Shown here piece after piece: positions 343 through 6,605 of a stretch of 15,112 nt of DNA. Each line of letters opens with the position of its first letter. Positions within the stretch are counted from its first letter, which is position 1. This DNA comes from a virus (lineage: Duplodnaviria > Heunggongvirae > Uroviricota > Caudoviricetes), in the IMG/VR virus record IMGVR_UViG_648276650_000001, positions 1 to 15,112 of that record; one strand, given 5' to 3'. Position numbers and translations under genes: made by a program. The notes beneath the pieces were generated by a model. That model was not told the DNA's origin, made no database searches, and saw nothing but the letters and a program-made list of their open reading frames with translations.

Positions 343-919
343 CATCCGGCGCGGTGCTGGTATCTGTTGCCGTCACCGCGTCAATGTAATCCAGCACGGC
401 GTTAAGTCGGGTTGTTTCTGCCTGCGTCAACTTCCGTCCGGCCTGTAATTTCAGCTGAATCAGACTAATGGAAACCATTGCTGCATCAATCAGTGACTGG
501 CGCTGTGCTTCTGCCGCTTTTACTGCGGCACCATATTGTGCCTCAGTATCTGTCACCCATTTCTCACCATCCCATTTATCGTATGGCGTTAACGGAGCGA
601 TAGTGCTCGTATTTTCAGGGTAATCTCCTGGCGCGGTGATTTCTTTTGGTTCTCCAGTTTCGGTGCTATAAACAATTTCACCGCGATGGTCTGGCACATA
701 TTTCCACGAGTTCAAATCCGTTGAGCGGCATATTGCATAACCAGCTTTAGATGCACCTGGTGCATCTAAACAAGAACATGCCGGGATACCGACACCGACA
801 GCAAGATATTCTGTTGATGTTGAAATATATTCCTGCGTCTCACCATCATAATTATAAACGGTAACATTCCCCGCCTTTGTAGCAATAAGCTCACTATTTA
901 ATACAGCTTTATTCATCAT
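314..919 (-). CDS. tfa: Tail fibre assembly protein (Tfa-like chaperone)
   Basis: 201-aa ORF. The C-terminal half (DHRGEIVYSTETGEP...YDKWDGEKWVTDTEAQ...DTSTAPDVIWPELPEA) resembles lambda Tfa as I recall it. The start overlaps the stop of the upstream tail-fibre gene in an ATGA arrangement. Confidence 0.85.
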   Translation of the reverse strand: MMNKAVLNSELIATKAGNVTVYNYDGETQEYISTSTEYLAVGVGIPACSCLDAPGASKAGYAICRSTDLNSWKYVPDHRGEIVYSTETGEPKEITAPGDYPENTSTIAPLTPYDKWDGEKWVTDTEAQYGAAVKAAEAQRQSLIDAAMVSISLIQLKLQAGRKLTQAETTRLNAVLDYIDAVTATDTSTAPDVIWPELPEA

Positions 920-1887
920 GCAGCCCTCACAATATAATTAAAAGCGATGTTACGTGGACGATTTTCATTTGCTGTTGGAACGACATTTGCTGCAGAAAAA
1001 TAAACATCTTGTCTGATACGTCTGTCTGTTGCGTAAGTCATAGGTACGTTAATGTTATTTCTAGTAGTTTCTTCCCCATAAAAGGCCCCAGCCACACCAC
1101 TAACATCGATAATTGCATTAATCTCACTGTTAACACGCTGCTGACCGAATGAACCAGTGATGTTTCGAATGGCATCTCCCTGTGACGAAAGCAAGCTACG
1201 GTTAGTATCAATTCCTCTTCCATCATCCCAGCCACGAATGAACTCACCACGTAAATCAGGCAATTTTTTTGTCGGGTAAGCCTTTGCCAGTTCCGGGTAT
1301 TCTTCAGCAGAAAAAACCGCACCGTTGCATTTCAGCCAGCCTGTTGGCGGAGTGGCGGAAGGCCACGGAACAGGGACACCAACAGGTAATGCAGAGCCTT
1401 CTCCCAAACCAAGGTTTGTGCTAGCGTCTGCGGCATTCGTTGCGCCGGTACCACCTTGATTAACCGGCAAAGCTCCGTTGCTCCCCTTCTGCAGTAATTT
1501 CCCAAGAGCCGGGATTGATAAACTGGTGCCATTGATCGTAACGGTAATGTTCTGGTTGGCTGAGGTTGTGGCGAACGTCTCCCACGCACCAATATTCTCG
1601 TCATACTCCTTGATAAGCTGCGACATGGCCTGCGCCAGCCCATCAACCGAGATATTGTCTGATACCAGAATGCCGTACTTCTGGCCGCTCAGCGCCGGTG
1701 ATGCAGCAGGCGTTACCGTCATTGACGTGGCGCTATTCACGGATGAAATCTGGAACAGTTGCACCGGGTTAGACATCACGATAATTGTCTGGCCAGCGCG
1801 AACCTGGCTGGCCGGTGCAGTCCAGTTTGTACCGGAGCCGGTTGCGGTATTTCCGTTAATAGAGATAGTTCCGGTGCTATAAATCAT
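916..1887 (-). CDS. Tail fibre protein (short, 323 aa) with a C-terminal phage-tail-collar type domain
   Basis: The C-terminal region (PVPWPSATPPTGWLKCNGAVFSAEEYPELAKAYP...LPDLRGEFIRGWDDGRG...NIAFNYIVRAA) resembles the conserved C-termini of E. coli prophage side tail fibre proteins (StfR-type ...NIAFNYIVRLA) as I recall them. It has its own AGGAG Shine-Dalgarno 5 nt upstream of the ATG at 1887. Confidence 0.85.
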   Translation of the reverse strand: MIYSTGTISINGNTATGSGTNWTAPASQVRAGQTIIVMSNPVQLFQISSVNSATSMTVTPAASPALSGQKYGILVSDNISVDGLAQAMSQLIKEYDENIGAWETFATTSANQNITVTINGTSLSIPALGKLLQKGSNGALPVNQGGTGATNAADASTNLGLGEGSALPVGVPVPWPSATPPTGWLKCNGAVFSAEEYPELAKAYPTKKLPDLRGEFIRGWDDGRGIDTNRSLLSSQGDAIRNITGSFGQQRVNSEINAIIDVSGVAGAFYGEETTRNNINVPMTYATDRRIRQDVYFSAANVVPTANENRPRNIAFNYIVRAA

Positions 1888-2392
1888 AACAACTCCTAAA
1901 TTTAGACAACATGAAGCCCGGAGAGGTATATAACCCTCACCAGAAATAATTTCTGAATTGGTTTTTAATACATGTTGGGCAACGCCAGTGTTGGCATAGC
2001 TATAGTTGTATCAAATGCCATTGACCACCAACCCAAATAATAATTGCCGACTACTTTATTCCTTTCCGCTATGACATTCCCACCTGTCATTACAATTCCT
2101 TTATACCTAATATTTCCGTAACCACCAACGTGTCGACAGTTAGCCCCGGTATAAACAATCTGGCAAAATTTATCACCAATATTCAGGTTCGCATTGGTGA
2201 TATTTATTGTCCCATCAAAAATGAATGGCTTCGTGCAAGTAAGAACACGTTTGCGTTGACGATTGGTTTATTCAATCCATCAACTAGAATACCTTGTAAA
2301 AGAATTGCCATAATATTTCTCACTTTATTTAACTTACTCAGCATAACAAGTATATTGAAATTCAACCATGTCAACAACACAAAGGAGTCCCA
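1888..2392. promoter_or_regulatory. AT-rich non-coding region between the divergent tail-fibre gene (-) and lipoprotein gene (+); presumed to hold divergent promoters
   Basis: About 500 bp with no convincing ORF and clearly more AT-rich than the flanking coding sequence. Exact -35/-10 hexamers could not be assigned with confidence. Confidence 0.4.
2171..2202. repeat. Perfect 10-bp inverted repeat with a 12-bp spacer (TATCACCAAT-n12-ATTGGTGATA); candidate protein-binding site
   Basis: Read directly: tatcaccaat (2171-2180) and attggtgata (2193-2202) are exact reverse complements. Confidence 0.5.
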
Positions 2393-2626
2393 ATGAAACT
2401 CGCTCTAATTATGCTGCCATTATGTCTGTCCCTCACTGCATGTGGTAATGGTTTAAATACCGGTAAACCAAATTCCGGTGTCATTCCAAAACCTTTGGAT
2501 CGCGATGGTAACGGTTCTTTAATTTATGATACCGAAAAGCTTCCAATGACTGGGCAATGGTGCCATGAAATTGATCACGAATACAGACGAATTGGTTCAC
2601 CTTCAAACTGTGTGATTGATTATTGA
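2393..2626 (+). CDS. Small lipoprotein (77-aa precursor); candidate Cor/Llp-like superinfection-exclusion moron
   Basis: AAAGGAG Shine-Dalgarno 7-8 nt upstream of the ATG. N-terminus MKLALIMLPLCLSLTAC has a hydrophobic core and an LTAC lipobox, with Gly at +2. Two further Cys in the mature part. AT-rich relative to the tail genes. Followed by a strong hairpin with a T-tract. Confidence 0.75.
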   Translation: MKLALIMLPLCLSLTACGNGLNTGKPNSGVIPKPLDRDGNGSLIYDTEKLPMTGQWCHEIDHEYRRIGSPSNCVIDY

Positions 2627-2662
2627 TAATTAACCCCTCAAACGAGGGGTTAATTATTTATT
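2627..2662 (+). terminator. Intrinsic terminator for the lipoprotein gene, formed by a 13-bp perfect palindrome and shared with the 3' end of J
   Basis: taattaacccctc (2627-2639), loop aaac, gaggggttaatta (2644-2656), then tttatt. The T-tract is good on the plus strand only; on the minus strand the hairpin is followed by TCAATAATC. Confidence 0.7.
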
Positions 2663-5600
2663 ACGACCAACTGCCAGTTCCGCGAGTCATTAATATTACA
2701 GACGGGCGCAAGTAGCTATTATAGACGTTCGTATACGCCTCCTTAACGCTTATTGTTACGCTCGACGCTGTCTTTCCTTTCACTGCTAACGGTATGGTTA
2801 CATCCATGTCGGGACCATTAGCAGCTCGCTCAATGCTCCTTGTAATTGAGGTCCCCCCTATGTTAGCAGTCACAGTTATACGACTTGCCTGATTTGATGT
2901 ATATGCGGTTAAACTATAACTTAATAGCAACACAAAGTCTTTAGATAATGTTGAACCAGATGAGTCTTTGAAAGTTTTTGTCCAGGTTCTTGAACTTGTA
3001 GTTTCTGTGTTTGGTATTGCGGACTCAGCAATGACACACATATTCGCAACATCACCGATAAAACTTTGCGCTTCTACAGTTCCTTTGAACTTACCGCTTG
3101 TTGCTTGTATCTCACCAGTAAAGCTACCGCCACTAGCATATACCACACCTCTGACAGTTACGTTATTGAATTCAGCATCCCCGGCTTTATCAAGCTTCCA
3201 GCCAGCAGAACCAGCAACATAATTGTTCGACTGGATATAGTTGCCGATTTTGGCGTTCTCAATGGTGCCGTCCTGGATGAAGCTGGCCCGGATGAATGTC
3301 TGCCCGTTCTGGATCACGAACGGCAAAGCCACGCTATTTCCGGCCGCCGTGGTGACGGCGAAGCGATCAGCCAGGAAGATAACCTGCGACTGCATGCCGG
3401 ATGGCGTATTCTCCACGCCGATCCCCATCCCTGCGGCGTAATACTGCCCGTTGCTGGAGACACCAACCTTGATGTTGTACATCGCGCTGAGTTCGCCATT
3501 AACGTTGGCTATAGCCTGAGCGTTAGTGGTGATGGCGGAGGTATGCCCGTTCACGGTCGCCGTGATGCCGTTTATCTGCGTGGCGGTGGCCTGCTGATAG
3601 TCGGAGAGCGTCTGATTCAGGCTGTTGATGGATGCCTTGTTGCCGTTGACGTCCGTCTGCAGGCTCAGCAATGAACGTGCTGTGGCTTCCTTCTCACTGA
3701 CGATCACCTCGTCGAGACGGTCCAGCTGAGCGCTGTTACCGGCGACCGTTGCGGATAGCCTTTTGCGTGTGGCGACCTGCGCCAGCCCGTTCTGGATAAT
3801 GGCAATGGCTGAGTTCTTGACCCCGCCCGTCATGCCATCCATAGACACACTGATGCTGTCGATTCGCTGGCCCAGCGCGGTATCAGCCGTCGCAACGGTC
3901 TGCTCAAGCTGACTGAGTGAAGACGAAACATTCCCGACCGTGCTGGAAAGCTCATTAACGCTGGTCTGAACCTTCCCGACGTCCTGGGCATTTTTGGCGA
4001 TGTCCTTCGCCTGCTGCTCCAGTTCGTCGTTGGCCTGTTTGATATCGTTAGCCATGTCAGCAATTTTTTCATTGCTGTCCACCGCGTTCTCGATCAGGTC
4101 CTTGAACGTATCGGAGCCTTTCATGTCCTCCAGGATCACATCTGTGATGTCGGAAACATCGATGCTGGCCTGTCCTCGCACCCATTCTGTGTACCCTGAT
4201 TCGTTGCCGCTGCGGTCCACCAGCTGAGCGCGGTACCAGAAAATCTGCCCAGCATTGAGGCCCATCTGCTGATATTTGCGCTGCGGATAAGGCACATCGG
4301 CCAGCAGCATCGCATCGTCCTCGGTTCCGGTCAGGCTGTACTGAATTTCCGTCTTCAGCGTGTCGTCGGTATTCGCCGGGAATCCCCAGTTCAGCTCGAT
4401 GCCGAAATCCACATTTTCAGAAGCGATGAAGCCAACCGGCTTAGGTGGATTGCCCACTTTACCCGTCAGCGTTTTCTCTTCTGAATAGCCCCATCCGGAT
4501 GAAATTTCTGCGGCATTGATTGCGCGCACCCGCACCAGGTAGCGCCCGGCATAAATCCCCGGGACGTCGAATGACGTGGTGGAGGTGCGCGGCACGTTAA
4601 CCCAGTTCCCGTCGTTGCGGCGCCATTGCGCTTCATAGGCGATAGCGTTCTGCGCCTGGTCCCAGCTCACGCGCATCGTTTCGACGCTGATATTTTGCTG
4701 CACCACGGAAAACGAGCTGATCACGATGTTCGCAGGCGGCGACTGGTTACCAGGCGGGATCACGCTCACCGGCCGCTGGTCAATAATGGCTCCGGTATCG
4801 ATTCGGGCATATTTATCCGGATCGTGCCATGCACCGGTAATGGTGAAAGTGCCATCATCGTTATCAGTGACGCTCACAACACGGTACTGCTGTGCGTACA
4901 GTTCGTTTGACTCAACCACCCAGACAGCTTCGGCCTGCGGCGTCTCACTGTATGCGGTGGTGACTGTGACCGATTCCCCGTTAACCGCCTGAATTGTCCT
5001 GCTCTGTGACGCTCCGGAGGGAAGGTTGAGGATAAGGCGATCACCTGCTGCCGCATCAGCTACACGGTCAAGTTTGATAACGCGACCATTAACGGCGCTG
5101 ATGCGTCCGCCCATAACCTTTCCGGAAAGCAGCTCGTCTGCCACAGCGATGATATAGCCAGGCTGCGGTATGTTTCCGTCCAGCCCGACATCGAACGAAA
5201 CAACGCGATCCTTGTTGTTGGTGAGAATACCCCAGCGCCCCTTTCGGTTCGCTTCTGACTGTCTGGTACAACCAATGGCTGTCATTTCGAGCTGATTTGT
5301 GCCAAAGCGAGCAACGAGATCCTGCTCAAATACAGGCTCCATCGCATCCGCGTAGGCATTACCCGGATCGGACCAGGAAACCAGTGCTGTGGTATAGCGG
5401 GTTTTCGTGGTGCTGCCCGAATAGGTAAAGCGCCCATTAACCACGTTTGCACGCGTGTAGCTGTAATCCACATCGCGGGGCATATCCGCCAGCGCAACGA
5501 TTTGATCGCCACCCCAGTACGTCATGCCCCGGAATATCGCCGCAAAATCACGTAACACGGTATAGGCATCATTCCTCTCCTGCACATACACGTTGCAGGT

Positions 5601-6605
5601 ATAGCGAGGCTCAGTGCCGCTACCGCCTTTACCATCAGGAACCGGCTGATCGCAATATTGCGCGACCTGGTAAAGCGTCCATTTATCAATATTGGTCGCC
5701 GTCAGGCGATTGCCCAGCCCAAAGCGGTCGCTCACCACCAGATCGTAAAAAATCCAGGCCGGATTATCCGTCCACGCCCACTTAAACACCCCCGTCCATG
5801 TGCCGCTATAGGTGCGGGTCTCCGGGTCATACGTATCCGGAACGCGGATTACACGGCCTCGCGGTTCGCAGGCTATTTGCGGGATAGAGCCGTTAAACTG
5901 GCTTGAGTCAAATTCGATGTAGAGCAGCGCGGTATTTGGATAACGCAGTTTGGCGTCGATAACCTCTGTGTAGCTCTGCAGCGTCATTGTGTCGCCAATT
6001 TTCGCGCTGTTGGCATCCGCCGTGAGCTTACGCAGGCGCACCGTCCATGTGCTGCCTGCCTGTGGTAAGTCGATGCGATGGCTGCGTTCGTAGCCGGAAG
6101 TTGTCTTGCCGGTTACGCTGGTATTAAGTACCGTCTGCCAGGTACCACCATCAGTCTGCAGATCAATGGCGTAGTTAATTGAATAGCCAACCAGATCGCC
6201 ATCGTTCTCCTGTTTAAAAAGCGATGGCCATTTCAGGCGCAGGCGAACGGCTGACAGCTGCGTGTTGGTAAAGGTGTGTGTCCAGGCGGTGGTGCTTGAA
6301 ACTTCGGTGCCCACGCTGATTTCGTTTTCGGTACCGGGGATGCCCTGAATGTATTTTTGTGCCTGCGTCCCCGGGCGGAATTCCCACGCCACGCCGCTGA
6401 AGTTTTGCGAACCGTCTGCATTCTCCAGTGGTGTGCCGTCGAGATAGATATCTTTCGCCGTCAGTTGCCCGGCAAATTCCCCCTCTCCCAGCGCAACAAG
6501 AATTTTGGCCTTTGCTACGGACTGGAGGTCGTCTGGTTGTTCAGTCGGGGTGCGGGAACTTGAGCTGCCGCCCTTGCGGCCTCTAATCGGAGTAGATGTA
6601 GCCAT
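2661..6605 (-). CDS. J: Tail tip / host specificity protein J (central tail fibre, 1314 aa)
   Basis: Very long ORF immediately after I in lambda gene order. Internal segments (e.g. YPNTALLYIEFDSSQF, TWTGVFKWAWTDNPAWIFYD, CDQPVPDGKGGSGTEPRYTCN, FTITGAWHDPDKYA) resemble lambda gpJ as I recall it. Includes a long Ala/Gln/Ser-rich coiled-coil-like stretch and a distinct C-terminal domain. Confidence 0.95.
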   Translation of the reverse strand: MATSTPIRGRKGGSSSSRTPTEQPDDLQSVAKAKILVALGEGEFAGQLTAKDIYLDGTPLENADGSQNFSGVAWEFRPGTQAQKYIQGIPGTENEISVGTEVSSTTAWTHTFTNTQLSAVRLRLKWPSLFKQENDGDLVGYSINYAIDLQTDGGTWQTVLNTSVTGKTTSGYERSHRIDLPQAGSTWTVRLRKLTADANSAKIGDTMTLQSYTEVIDAKLRYPNTALLYIEFDSSQFNGSIPQIACEPRGRVIRVPDTYDPETRTYSGTWTGVFKWAWTDNPAWIFYDLVVSDRFGLGNRLTATNIDKWTLYQVAQYCDQPVPDGKGGSGTEPRYTCNVYVQERNDAYTVLRDFAAIFRGMTYWGGDQIVALADMPRDVDYSYTRANVVNGRFTYSGSTTKTRYTTALVSWSDPGNAYADAMEPVFEQDLVARFGTNQLEMTAIGCTRQSEANRKGRWGILTNNKDRVVSFDVGLDGNIPQPGYIIAVADELLSGKVMGGRISAVNGRVIKLDRVADAAAGDRLILNLPSGASQSRTIQAVNGESVTVTTAYSETPQAEAVWVVESNELYAQQYRVVSVTDNDDGTFTITGAWHDPDKYARIDTGAIIDQRPVSVIPPGNQSPPANIVISSFSVVQQNISVETMRVSWDQAQNAIAYEAQWRRNDGNWVNVPRTSTTSFDVPGIYAGRYLVRVRAINAAEISSGWGYSEEKTLTGKVGNPPKPVGFIASENVDFGIELNWGFPANTDDTLKTEIQYSLTGTEDDAMLLADVPYPQRKYQQMGLNAGQIFWYRAQLVDRSGNESGYTEWVRGQASIDVSDITDVILEDMKGSDTFKDLIENAVDSNEKIADMANDIKQANDELEQQAKDIAKNAQDVGKVQTSVNELSSTVGNVSSSLSQLEQTVATADTALGQRIDSISVSMDGMTGGVKNSAIAIIQNGLAQVATRKRLSATVAGNSAQLDRLDEVIVSEKEATARSLLSLQTDVNGNKASINSLNQTLSDYQQATATQINGITATVNGHTSAITTNAQAIANVNGELSAMYNIKVGVSSNGQYYAAGMGIGVENTPSGMQSQVIFLADRFAVTTAAGNSVALPFVIQNGQTFIRASFIQDGTIENAKIGNYIQSNNYVAGSAGWKLDKAGDAEFNNVTVRGVVYASGGSFTGEIQATSGKFKGTVEAQSFIGDVANMCVIAESAIPNTETTSSRTWTKTFKDSSGSTLSKDFVLLLSYSLTAYTSNQASRITVTANIGGTSITRSIERAANGPDMDVTIPLAVKGKTASSVTISVKEAYTNVYNSYLRPSVILMTRGTGSWS

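Follow-up and report, generated by a model that had tools for sequence, protein, structure and literature searches.

Organisation of the locus between J and the tail-fibre gene

The window analysed here is a 15,112-nucleotide stretch of a Caudoviricetes virus (IMG/VR record IMGVR_UViG_648276650_000001), and the region under study covers its positions 1888-2392. On one side lie J (2661-6605, minus strand) and a lipoprotein gene (2393-2626, plus strand), which is antisense to the late operon and encodes 77 amino acids with the lipobox LTAC. On the other side lies an intact HK97-Stf-type tail-fibre gene (916-1887, minus strand) encoding 323 amino acids with a Collar domain. Coordinates and strands of this J/antisense lipoprotein/tail-fibre arrangement agree with the original prediction, which had described the region as an AT-rich non-coding island. 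The region is indeed AT-rich, with a GC content of 0.37 compared to 0.525 for the whole window and 0.54 for J. It holds no intact gene, yet "non-coding" does not describe it, as the minus strand consists of an 81-bp intergenic segment, the head stub of a side-tail-fibre gene (stf'), the 3' remnant of a DUF6453 gene (DUF6453') and a 77-bp spacer. An NCBIfam search with all open reading frames returned no meaningful match, and an Rfam E-value scan of positions 1500-3000 matched no RNA family.

The intergenic segment (2312-2392) separates the lipoprotein start at 2393 (plus strand) from the stub start at 2311 (minus strand) and is common to Queuovirinae phages. Upstream of the lipoprotein gene it carries a promoter-like TTAACT-16-TATATT (2329-2356, plus strand) and AAAGGAG (2381-2387, plus strand); phage 9g, phage SeppeHuegi and the prophage of E. 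coli ARL09 share the -10 element and have TTxACT as the -35 element. This putative plus-strand lipoprotein promoter is the only plausible regulatory element of the region. In some relatives the 81-bp segment has been replaced by other alleles, and 53 of its 81 sites vary across seven copies. The lipoprotein gene itself matches phrog_12984 ("lipoprotein", E = 9e-57), has counterparts in 9g and SeppeHuegi and belongs to a module common to Queuovirinae. Between its stop and that of J lies a hairpin (2626-2657) with a perfect 14-bp stem and a 4-nt loop (-20 to -21 kcal/mol, z = -6 to -7), which is likely the lipoprotein terminator, because a U-run follows it on the plus strand only. Phage 9g has an annotated "H1 loop" stem-loop at the matching position between its lipoprotein gene and J. 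The paper describing the 9g genome (PMC4276943) contains no discussion of the "H1/H2 loops" that the annotation places around this lipoprotein gene. At the other end of the region, the spacer (1888-1964, minus strand) runs from the DUF6453' stop to the tail-fibre ATG and contains a Shine-Dalgarno sequence, AGGAG (1893-1897), 5 nt from that ATG.

Two truncated genes meet at an abrupt homology break

The stf' open reading frame (2204-2311, minus strand) has 35 codons and reads MAILLQGILVDGLNKPIVNANVFLLARS followed by HSFLMGQ and the stop. About 29 leading codons are genuine stf, while the last six codons and the stop are DUF6453 remnant read out of frame. Phage 9g is 93.5% identical to window positions 2225-2392, which correspond to the start of its stf gene and the upstream intergenic DNA, and the 9g side-tail-fibre protein begins with MAIRLHGILVDGLNKPIVNANVFLLARSN. 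The 29 stf codons are 93-97% identical to those of 9g and HdK1, and DNA-level homology to the beginning of the tail-fibre genes in 9g, HdK1 and SeppeHuegi ends at about 2225-2228. Profile searches outline the same truncation: tail-fibre PHROGs align over positions 1-30 (E = 3e-5), and Pfam phage_tail_N (PF08400) aligns over profile positions 1-30 only, below threshold with 14.6 bits against a cut-off of 26.6. An intact fibre of the lambda Stf or Rac StfR type was rejected as an assignment, since the ~134-residue N-terminal domain and the long shaft are missing from a frame of 35 codons.

The DUF6453 remnant (1965-2222, minus strand) comprises 85 codons plus a stop, or the last ~28% of a protein of ~320 amino acids. 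It scores 62 bits against Pfam PF20051 (cut-off 25) over profile positions 229-289 of 291 and matches positions 248-332 of 332 of phrog_1265. BLASTP with 1965-2231 aligned it without gaps to residues 232-319 of the 319-amino-acid SPN3UB gp38 (51% identity, E = 4e-31). While intact family members are ~320 amino acids long and have a normal start codon, only the C-terminal fragment is present here, and its frame contains no ATG, GTG or TTG before codon 45. Annotation by PGAP/RefSeq either starts the remnant at an ATT, which no clear Shine-Dalgarno sequence precedes, or marks it as "incomplete; missing N-terminus". In RefSeq, 36 E. coli genomes carry it under the label "DUF6453 family protein"; most of them, including the probiotic Nissle 1917, list it as a CDS, and in one case it is given as a partial pseudogene.

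Protein, HMM and tblastn searches found no full-length DUF6453 donor closer than ~52% identity. A word-indexed protein search returned the remnant itself only, an exhaustive HMMER search of 1.84 billion representatives gave no full-length match closer than ~48%, the best DUF6453 match in tblastn against phages was 51.8%, and two scans of genome contigs for a full-length donor yielded nothing. In the literature searched, DUF6453 is mentioned by a single paper, as an entry in a list.

The homologies of stf' and DUF6453' abut or overlap at 2223-2231 (minus strand), where the DUF6453 frame lies at -1 relative to the stf' frame across a run of five T. The two sides have different relatives, with 2225-2392 resembling 9g-type phages and 1965-2231 resembling DUF6453 3' ends. 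An identical 32-nt junction was found in all seven copies compared and in a further 11 IMG/VR contigs, and because all copies share it, the junction appears to be of single origin. The region as such is present in 41 of 5426 complete E. coli genomes.

Relatives show several other architectures at this locus. Full-length stf is found in 9g and Seurat, and the order J, intact DUF6453, tail fibre in the Salmonella phages SPN3UB and 29485. E. coli CX21 keeps the spacer and only the last ~19 nt of DUF6453', with J and its hairpin directly upstream and the fibre gene downstream, and mEp237 has cor, a terminator and then the fibre gene. In relatives, both the module of the J end and lipoprotein gene and that of the tail fibre are found combined with other partners. 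The tail fibre of the window lacks a phage_tail_N domain, as an HK97-type fibre, and its N-terminal ~130 amino acids are related to the fibre that follows DUF6453 in SPN3UB (27% identity, E = 2e-4). The suggestion of the original prediction that the region could be a scar of module exchange is borne out by the abrupt break of homology at about 2225-2231, the truncated genes on both sides of it and the alternative architectures. It is therefore very probable that the tail-fibre locus, which belongs to a lambdoid prophage, contains a mosaic joint, or recombination scar, at 1888-2392.

The ancestral locus would have consisted of J, the antisense lipoprotein gene and a long stf, as in phage 9g and Seuratvirus phages. 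An illegitimate or microhomology-mediated exchange would then have fused stf at about codon 29 to DUF6453 at about codon 232, the donor having probably been a module of the type DUF6453, HK97-type tail fibre, tfa. With the joint out of frame (-1), the exchange would have left a 35-codon stf stub with its own start, followed by a start-less 85-codon DUF6453 tail and, downstream of that tail, the spacer with the ribosome-binding site of the tail-fibre gene.

The DUF6453 remnant evolves neutrally

Variable sites in the remnant are spread over the three codon positions in a ratio of 5:5:4, compared to 17:11:70 in the tail-fibre gene (Fisher p = 0.0045). The comparison used the first 120 codons of the tail-fibre gene from the same genomes, with CX21 in the tail-fibre set only. 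In addition, 9 of the 13 variable codons of the remnant alter the amino acid. Because its variable sites fall evenly over the codon positions, unlike those of the adjacent tail-fibre gene, the remnant evolves neutrally, while the third-position bias in the tail-fibre gene points to purifying selection there. An intact DUF6453 gene is likewise rejected: the N-terminal ~72% is absent, as are a usual start codon and any sign of purifying selection.

Variable sites make up 5% of the scar and 27% of the tail-fibre gene that flanks it, so the scar is the less diverged of the two. Such a difference could mean constraint. We attribute it to a single recent origin of the scar combined with flanks that import divergent alleles by recombination; a 7-kb query spanning tfa, the tail fibre, the scar and J matches 2694 genomes, a much larger gene pool.

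A protein could still be made from the remnant, either as an 85-amino-acid fragment starting at the ATT or, through -1 slippage at A-TTT-TTG, as a chimera of ~115 amino acids that joins the N-terminal 31 residues of stf to the DUF6453 C-terminal domain. In favour of this, all 18 copies have an uninterrupted 85-codon frame, the native ATG of the stub and the sequence upstream of it are preserved, the frames of stub and remnant are in a -1 relation where they overlap at the T run, and most RefSeq genomes list a CDS. The open frame carries little weight, because by our estimate ~20 substitutions overall would leave it open about half the time by chance. Against a product stand the even codon-position pattern with its many amino acid changes, so different from that of the neighbouring gene, the lack of a usual start codon or clear Shine-Dalgarno sequence, the one pseudogene record and the loss of all but 28% of the family domain; for the chimera, A-TTT-TTG is not a canonical X-XXY-YYZ heptamer. 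We consider continued protein production very unlikely, and a functional small protein was rejected because of the codon-position pattern. Were the ~115-amino-acid chimera made by ribosomal or transcriptional -1 slippage, it would combine the tail-attachment N-terminus of a long side fibre with the DUF6453 C-terminal domain and could serve as an adaptor docking the HK97-type fibre on the tail tip, a scenario that we regard as extremely improbable.

The repeats lie within decaying coding sequence

The perfect 10-bp inverted repeat noted earlier is present at 2171-2202, with TATCACCAAT (2171-2180) and ATTGGTGATA (2193-2202) separated by 12 nt, and extends to 17-nt arms with 82% complementarity. 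It lies within the DUF6453' codons N-I-T-N-A-N-L-N-I-G-D-K, and on the coding strand its right arm (ATT GGT GAT A) encodes the conserved I-G-D-K motif of the family. In three full-length DUF6453 genes, the homologous site is only 4-5/10 complementary. When the 505-bp region was dinucleotide-shuffled, 2.2% of the shuffles contained perfect arms of at least 10 bp with a loop of up to 30 nt. Across the 15-kb window ~0.5 such repeats are expected and four were observed, so that for a scan of the whole window the palindrome is only marginally unusual.

The palindrome had been proposed as the binding site of a dimeric protein within a regulatory hub for the divergent lipoprotein and tail-fibre genes. 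Such an operator would fit its perfect 10-bp arms, spaced 22 bp centre to centre, its nominal rarity in 505 bp of AT-rich sequence, its position in AT-rich DNA between divergently oriented genes and the resemblance of its half-site, TATCACC, to lambda operator half-sites. However, operator sites usually recur, and this palindrome has a single copy in the window and a single copy in a complete related 42-kb prophage (E. coli ARL09/232), while half-sites with one mismatch stay at chance frequency (5 versus 3.05 +/- 1.67). Nor is it conserved. Of 18 copies, 5 have a perfect repeat and 12, including that of E. coli Nissle 1917, carry two non-compensatory arm substitutions; one further copy has a different, ambiguous arm variant. 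With 2 of the remnant's 14 variable sites falling in them, the arms are no better conserved than the rest of the remnant. In addition, 190 bp separate the palindrome from the start of the lipoprotein gene and 285 bp from that of the tail-fibre gene, the nearest promoter-like match (9/12 at 2136-2109, minus strand) is 35 bp away and within chance expectation, no regulator gene lies in the neighbourhood, and intact DUF6453 genes have no palindrome at this site. An operator role is therefore highly improbable, and the proposed hub with a dedicated fibre promoter is not supported for a unique, non-conserved palindrome in a dead gene, in a region whose homologous sequence is spanned by a protein-coding gene in relatives.

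Alternatively, the palindrome might act in RNA, as a leader hairpin affecting processing or stability or as a plus-strand terminator. It folds at -15.3 to -15.4 kcal/mol (z = -2.2 for the minus strand and -3.1 for the plus strand), and on the plus strand the stem is followed by UUUAUUGU. Yet the loop has 12 nt, the AT-rich stem has 3/10 G-C pairs and a terminator scan made no call; upstream on the plus strand, the window has no coding sequence closer than the partial alternate tfa' (1-342), at a distance of about 1.8 kb. Most copies have a disrupted stem, and Rfam gave no match. An RNA role is thus hardly probable, and an intrinsic terminator was rejected on stem and loop criteria as well as on conservation.

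The second repeat that had been pointed out, a direct 9-mer ACCACCAAC at 2024-2032 and 2121-2129 (plus strand), is also present. Its first copy results from a substitution at 2030 that is private to the window and changes a Gly to a Trp codon in the remnant frame; the second falls in the remnant codons H-V-G-G-Y. All relatives checked have ACCACCCAC at 2024, which confines the pair to the window. Exact 9-mer direct repeats number two pairs in the region compared to 0.88 expected, and 22% of shuffles reach the observed count. Being private to the window and of chance frequency, the repeat was rejected as a signal. Both the palindrome and the 9-mer repeat are best explained as accidents of decaying coding sequence.

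Expression of the tail-fibre gene

The original prediction had taken the separation of the tail-fibre gene from J as a sign of transcription from its own promoter. Non-contiguity alone is no argument for a separate promoter, because the order J, antisense lipoprotein gene, lateral fibre gene is standard and also found in virulent Queuovirinae. Most likely, late (Q-antiterminated) transcription would read on through the antisense lipoprotein gene and so produce the tail-fibre/tfa message, with the ~500 nt studied here as its untranslated or barely translated leader.

If the tail-fibre gene had a constitutive or late promoter of its own within 1888-2392, which could lie in the 77-bp spacer or the remnant, for instance, this would be independent of the palindrome and compatible with a scar. 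In favour of such a promoter, J is separated from the fibre gene by a strong hairpin (2626-2657) and an antisense gene, the 9/12 match at 2136-2109 (minus strand) reads TCGACA-16-AATATT, the spacer goes with the tail-fibre gene in CX21, and a terminator is annotated just upstream of the homologous tail-fibre gene in mEp237. Promoter-like matches, however, show no enrichment, with seven compared to 3.8 +/- 2.1 in shuffles, none above 9/12 and none well placed for the tail fibre, and on the late-transcript strand the hairpin has no U-run. Late transcription in lambdoid phages is antiterminated by Q and passes through terminators, and the same J/antisense lipoprotein/stf layout is found in virulent phages. 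A weak internal promoter may exist, but a promoter of its own for the tail fibre is unlikely.

Implications and comparison with known systems

For the region itself, there is little consequence beyond correct annotation as two pseudogene fragments, stf' and DUF6453', in place of regulatory non-coding DNA or an intact "DUF6453 family protein" CDS. More broadly, the scar offers a clean, datable case of tail-fibre module exchange between temperate lambdoid prophages and virulent Queuovirinae, and it marks the extreme 5' end of lateral tail-fibre genes as an anchor point of such exchanges. Both lessons are already known in principle.

Lambda OR and OL operators are 17-bp sites with TATCACC-type half-sites 3 bp apart, arranged in tandem at immunity-region promoters. 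The palindrome resembles them in that its half-site begins with TATCACC and its dyad is perfect. It differs in that its TATCACC and GGTGATA cores are 18 bp apart and in being a single, non-conserved site in a dead tail-region gene.

Genes of the DUF6453 family, with gp38 of SPN3UB and a "DUF6453 family protein" of Escherichia phage TR2 as examples, likewise lie between J and a tail-fibre gene, and the C-terminal 85 residues align with the remnant without gaps at 51% identity. In TR2, the DUF6453 gene adjoins a lipoprotein gene, convergent with a J-like gene. A locus position of that kind is named the "bona fide RBP locus" in the BASEL collection (PMC8594841), to which the TR2 DUF6453 position would correspond.

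In the BASEL collection, lateral tail-fibre variation begins just past the far 5' end of the first gene, and the modules located downstream of gpJ are exchanged horizontally (PMC8594841). The junction described here resembles the BASEL siphovirus joints, and more generally the mosaicism of lambdoid phages, in its conserved fibre 5' end, the abrupt loss of homology and the different distal module. Unlike in those joints, the exchange went out of frame and into a different gene, DUF6453, while the functional fibre is encoded by a separate downstream HK97-type gene. As a consequence, the exchange would have killed both genes and given no chimeric fibre. A similar outcome is found for the stf gene of lambda PaPa (orf-401/orf-314), for which PMC8594841 cites Hendrix and Duda (1992) as its reference 93. 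In that phage, a lambdoid side-fibre gene has again been inactivated by disruption of its frame, with open reading frame fragments left downstream of J; there, this is due to a one-base frameshift in an otherwise complete gene, whereas here ~29 stf codons are fused to foreign sequence.

Two gene stubs are joined upstream of the tail-fibre gene

The window comes from a lambdoid prophage and contains the distal part of its late operon, which runs on the minus strand; from 4182 onward, it is 93–95% identical to phages mEp237 and HK225. J (2661–6605, −) is followed by a perfect hairpin with a 14-bp stem (2626–2657) and a 77-aa lipoprotein gene running opposite to the late operon (2393–2626, +). 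The region at 1888–2392 then separates the lipoprotein gene from a tail-fibre gene (916–1887, −; 323 aa, Collar domain), beyond which lie tfa (314–919, −) and the end portion of an inverted alternate tfa (1–342).

This region had been described as an AT-rich non-coding island. While its AT-richness was confirmed (GC 0.37 vs 0.525 in the window), it is not featureless, as its minus strand is made up of four parts, two of which derive from genes: an 81-bp intergenic stretch (2392–2312); a 35-codon ORF (2311–2204, −; MAILLQGILVDGLNKPIVNANVFLLARS followed by HSFLMGQ and a stop); an 85-codon open frame with a terminal stop (2222–1965, −), in the −1 frame relative to that ORF; and a 77-bp spacer (1964–1888) in which AGGAG precedes the tail-fibre ATG by five bases. 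The intergenic stretch and the 35-codon ORF (stf' stub) share 93.5% DNA identity with the virulent phage 9g, where they correspond to the first 29 codons of its side-tail-fibre gene (protein N-terminus MAIRLHGILVDGLNKPIVNANVFLLARSN) plus the sequence upstream, and 97% with HdK1; the 9g alignment collapses at around 2225–2228. The stub matches tail-fibre PHROGs and Pfam phage_tail_N at profile positions 1–30 only. The 85-codon frame (DUF6453' remnant) matches Pfam DUF6453 with 62 bits (cut-off 25), restricted to profile positions 229–289 of 291, as well as phrog_1265 (positions 248–332 of 332), and shows gapless 51% identity (E = 4e-31) to gp38 of Salmonella phage SPN3UB, covering residues 232–319 of its 319 aa. 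None of the codons ATG, GTG and TTG appears in this frame ahead of codon 45. The region as a whole is a recombination scar composed of two gene stubs; the secondary suggestion of the original prediction, a scar of module exchange, was right.

The scar is shared among E. coli genomes and inconsistently annotated

Of 5426 complete E. coli genomes, 41 carry the 505 bp at 95–97% identity, 36 of them over at least 80% of the region; Nissle 1917 and strains derived from it account for many of these. Eleven viral contigs of IMG/VR likewise contain the 32-nt junction without any change. All 18 copies examined have an identical joint, which therefore originated a single time. In most genomes, RefSeq (PGAP) labels the remnant an intact 85-aa 'DUF6453 family protein' with a non-canonical ATT start (for example at 4078–4335 in both L001 and L002, two loci carrying the scar), while in strain 730V1 it is a partial pseudogene ('incomplete; missing N-terminus'); the stf' stub carries no RefSeq annotation. 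The RefSeq annotations of the scar are thus mutually inconsistent. The region is already partly annotated there, and the observation is real but ordinary. In two genomes, PGAP also calls an overlapping 165-aa plus-strand 'hypothetical protein', in which the lipoprotein gene is extended upstream across the scar.

The DUF6453 remnant evolves neutrally

A comparison of seven copies gave 14 variable sites in the remnant, distributed 5:5:4 over codon positions 1, 2 and 3, and the amino acid was altered in 9 of 13 variable codons. In contrast, the first 120 codons of the tail-fibre gene showed a distribution of 17:11:70 in the same genomes plus CX21 (Fisher p = 0.0045). The remnant therefore evolves neutrally. 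Its frame is open in all 18 copies, which is uninformative because there are so few substitutions. A reading in which stub and remnant are fused by frameshift into a 115-aa adaptor protein conflicts with this neutral pattern of substitutions; we regard it as highly improbable. Divergence is lower in the scar than in the flanking sequence, with 5% variable sites vs 27% in the fibre gene. This low divergence is attributed to a single recent origin and the absence of other homologues for recombination; the fibre gene belongs to a pool found in thousands of genomes.

The palindrome and direct repeat stem from decaying coding sequence

Both repeats reported for this region are present: a perfect 10-bp inverted repeat (TATCACCAAT at 2171–2180 and ATTGGTGATA at 2193–2202, 12-nt gap), the arms of which can be extended to 17 nt with 82% complementarity, and a direct 9-mer repeat (ACCACCAAC at 2024 and 2121). 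When the 505 bp were dinucleotide-shuffled, perfect inverted repeats with arms ≥10 and a loop ≤30 arose in 2.2% of the shuffles; for a 15-kb window, the expectation is about 0.5, vs four observed. Direct 9-mer repeats are at chance level (two pairs vs 0.88 expected; observed count reached by 22% of shuffles), and the one at issue was created solely by a substitution at 2030 private to the window, all relatives checked reading ACCACCCAC there.

The palindrome lies inside remnant codons (AAT ATC ACC AAT GCG AAC CTG AAT ATT GGT GAT AAA). On the coding strand, its right arm encodes I-G-D-K, a motif conserved in the DUF6453 family, and its left arm I-T-N, which aligns with V-T-D of intact genes. 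In three intact genes, only 4–5 of 10 positions are complementary at the corresponding site. The perfect repeat is kept in 5 of 18 copies, while 12 carry TATCGCCAAT...ATTGGTGATG, two mutually non-compensating changes, and one (locus L021) has another arm variant. Comparison with the intact genes indicates that the palindrome state of the window is the older one. Recurrence, as would be usual for an operator, was not observed: the complete prophage of strain ARL09/232 (42 kb), whose copy of the palindrome is perfect, contains the dyad once, and half-sites with one mismatch occur there at chance frequency, without excess. The RNA fold of the palindrome (about −15 kcal/mol, z = −2.2 to −3.1) is not terminator-like, and a role as terminator was rejected; Rfam gave no match at the palindrome or region. 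Palindrome and 9-mer repeat are incidental to the decay of coding sequence, leaving the primary suggestion of a regulatory hub unsupported.

Transcription around the scar

A consensus scan of 1500–3000 returned seven promoter-like sites vs 3.8 ± 2.1 in shuffles, the best scoring 9/12. The only sensibly placed site, TTAACT-16-TATATT (2329–2356, +), lies 37 nt before the lipoprotein ATG, ahead of AAAGGAG; in 9g, SeppeHuegi and ARL09, its −10 is conserved and its −35 reads TTxACT. We infer that this promoter drives the lipoprotein gene. The encoded lipoprotein, which matches nothing in Pfam and only phrog_12984 'lipoprotein' among the PHROGs, is a candidate for superinfection exclusion (Cor/Llp-like) on account of its position.

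The hairpin at 2626–2657 (4-nt loop; −20 to −21 kcal/mol, z = −6 to −7) sits exactly between the stops of J (2661) and the lipoprotein gene (2626). As a U-run follows it on the plus strand only, it should stop lipoprotein transcripts more than late transcripts. Phage 9g has an annotated 'H1 loop' stem-loop at the equivalent position, and E. coli CX21 keeps a similar hairpin (78.6% DNA identity) and has no lipoprotein gene. Late transcription of lambdoid phages is antiterminated. Since, in addition, the scan revealed nothing comparable ahead of the tail-fibre gene, read-through is the most likely mode of its expression, the scar then serving as leader; an internal promoter of its own is considered unlikely.

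A candidate invertible tail-fibre locus

TTCTCCCAAACCAAGGTTTGTGCTAG at 1399–1424 (+) occurs once in the window, is conserved in four distinct relatives and resembles a crossover site of the Gin/Cin/Pin/Hin invertase family. It coincides with the end of the mEp237 tail-fibre homology (1403), the constant/variable boundary of the tail-fibre gene, and in relatives an invertase gene ('recombinase family protein') neighbours inverted fibre-tip/tfa cassettes. Therefore, the tail-fibre/tfa locus is probably an invertible host-range switch, with the window starting inside it. Within tfa, positions 746–770 form a perfect inverted repeat with 12-nt arms, TTTAGATGCACC-t-GGTGCATCTAAA, which is the second longest of the window behind the 2626–2657 terminator hairpin and was absent from the relatives compared.

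Origin of the joint and comparison with related phages

In 9g and Seuratvirus phages, J is followed by the antisense lipoprotein gene and a long lateral tail-fibre gene. Window 2253–3176, comprising the stf head, intergenic stretch, lipoprotein gene, hairpin and last ~170 J codons, has 89% DNA identity to the virulent Seuratvirus SeppeHuegi, and the same module has 88% to Nonagvirus 9g (2253–3176 and 2225–2660 considered). In the Salmonella lambdoid phages SPN3UB and 29485, J is followed by an intact DUF6453 gene and a tail fibre whose N-terminal ~130 residues are homologous to the window fibre. From these two intact architectures it follows that the scar is the left joint of an exchange, which would have brought in a DUF6453-fibre-tfa module. 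The crossover may be placed between stf codon ~29 and DUF6453 codon ~232; being out of frame, it would have killed both genes. In the BASEL study (PMC8594841), variation in siphovirus lateral tail-fibre loci is reported to set in directly behind the far 5' end of the first lateral tail-fibre gene, and the loci that follow gpJ are reported to be modules exchanged horizontally.

Among genomes with the same stf' and DUF6453' stubs, at least three unrelated alleles of the 81-bp intergenic stretch plus lipoprotein gene occur (divergent at 3336–3510 of L015, E. coli 21AR0133, and at the L003 and L011 equivalents of window 2312–2392). As 53 of 81 intergenic sites vary vs 6 of 86 in the stub, the 29-codon stf head acts as a conserved anchor, flanked by two modules that are exchanged independently of each other.

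E. coli CX21 represents a third variant, which lacks the lipoprotein gene: J and the hairpin are followed by ~35 nt, the final ~19 nt of DUF6453, the 77-bp spacer and then the fibre gene. In mEp237, cor and an annotated terminator precede a homologous fibre gene. The module of J receptor-binding end and lipoprotein gene is common to temperate lambdoid prophages and virulent Queuovirinae. The exchange account agrees with the BASEL study on Queuovirinae and Dhillonvirus phages (PMC8594841).
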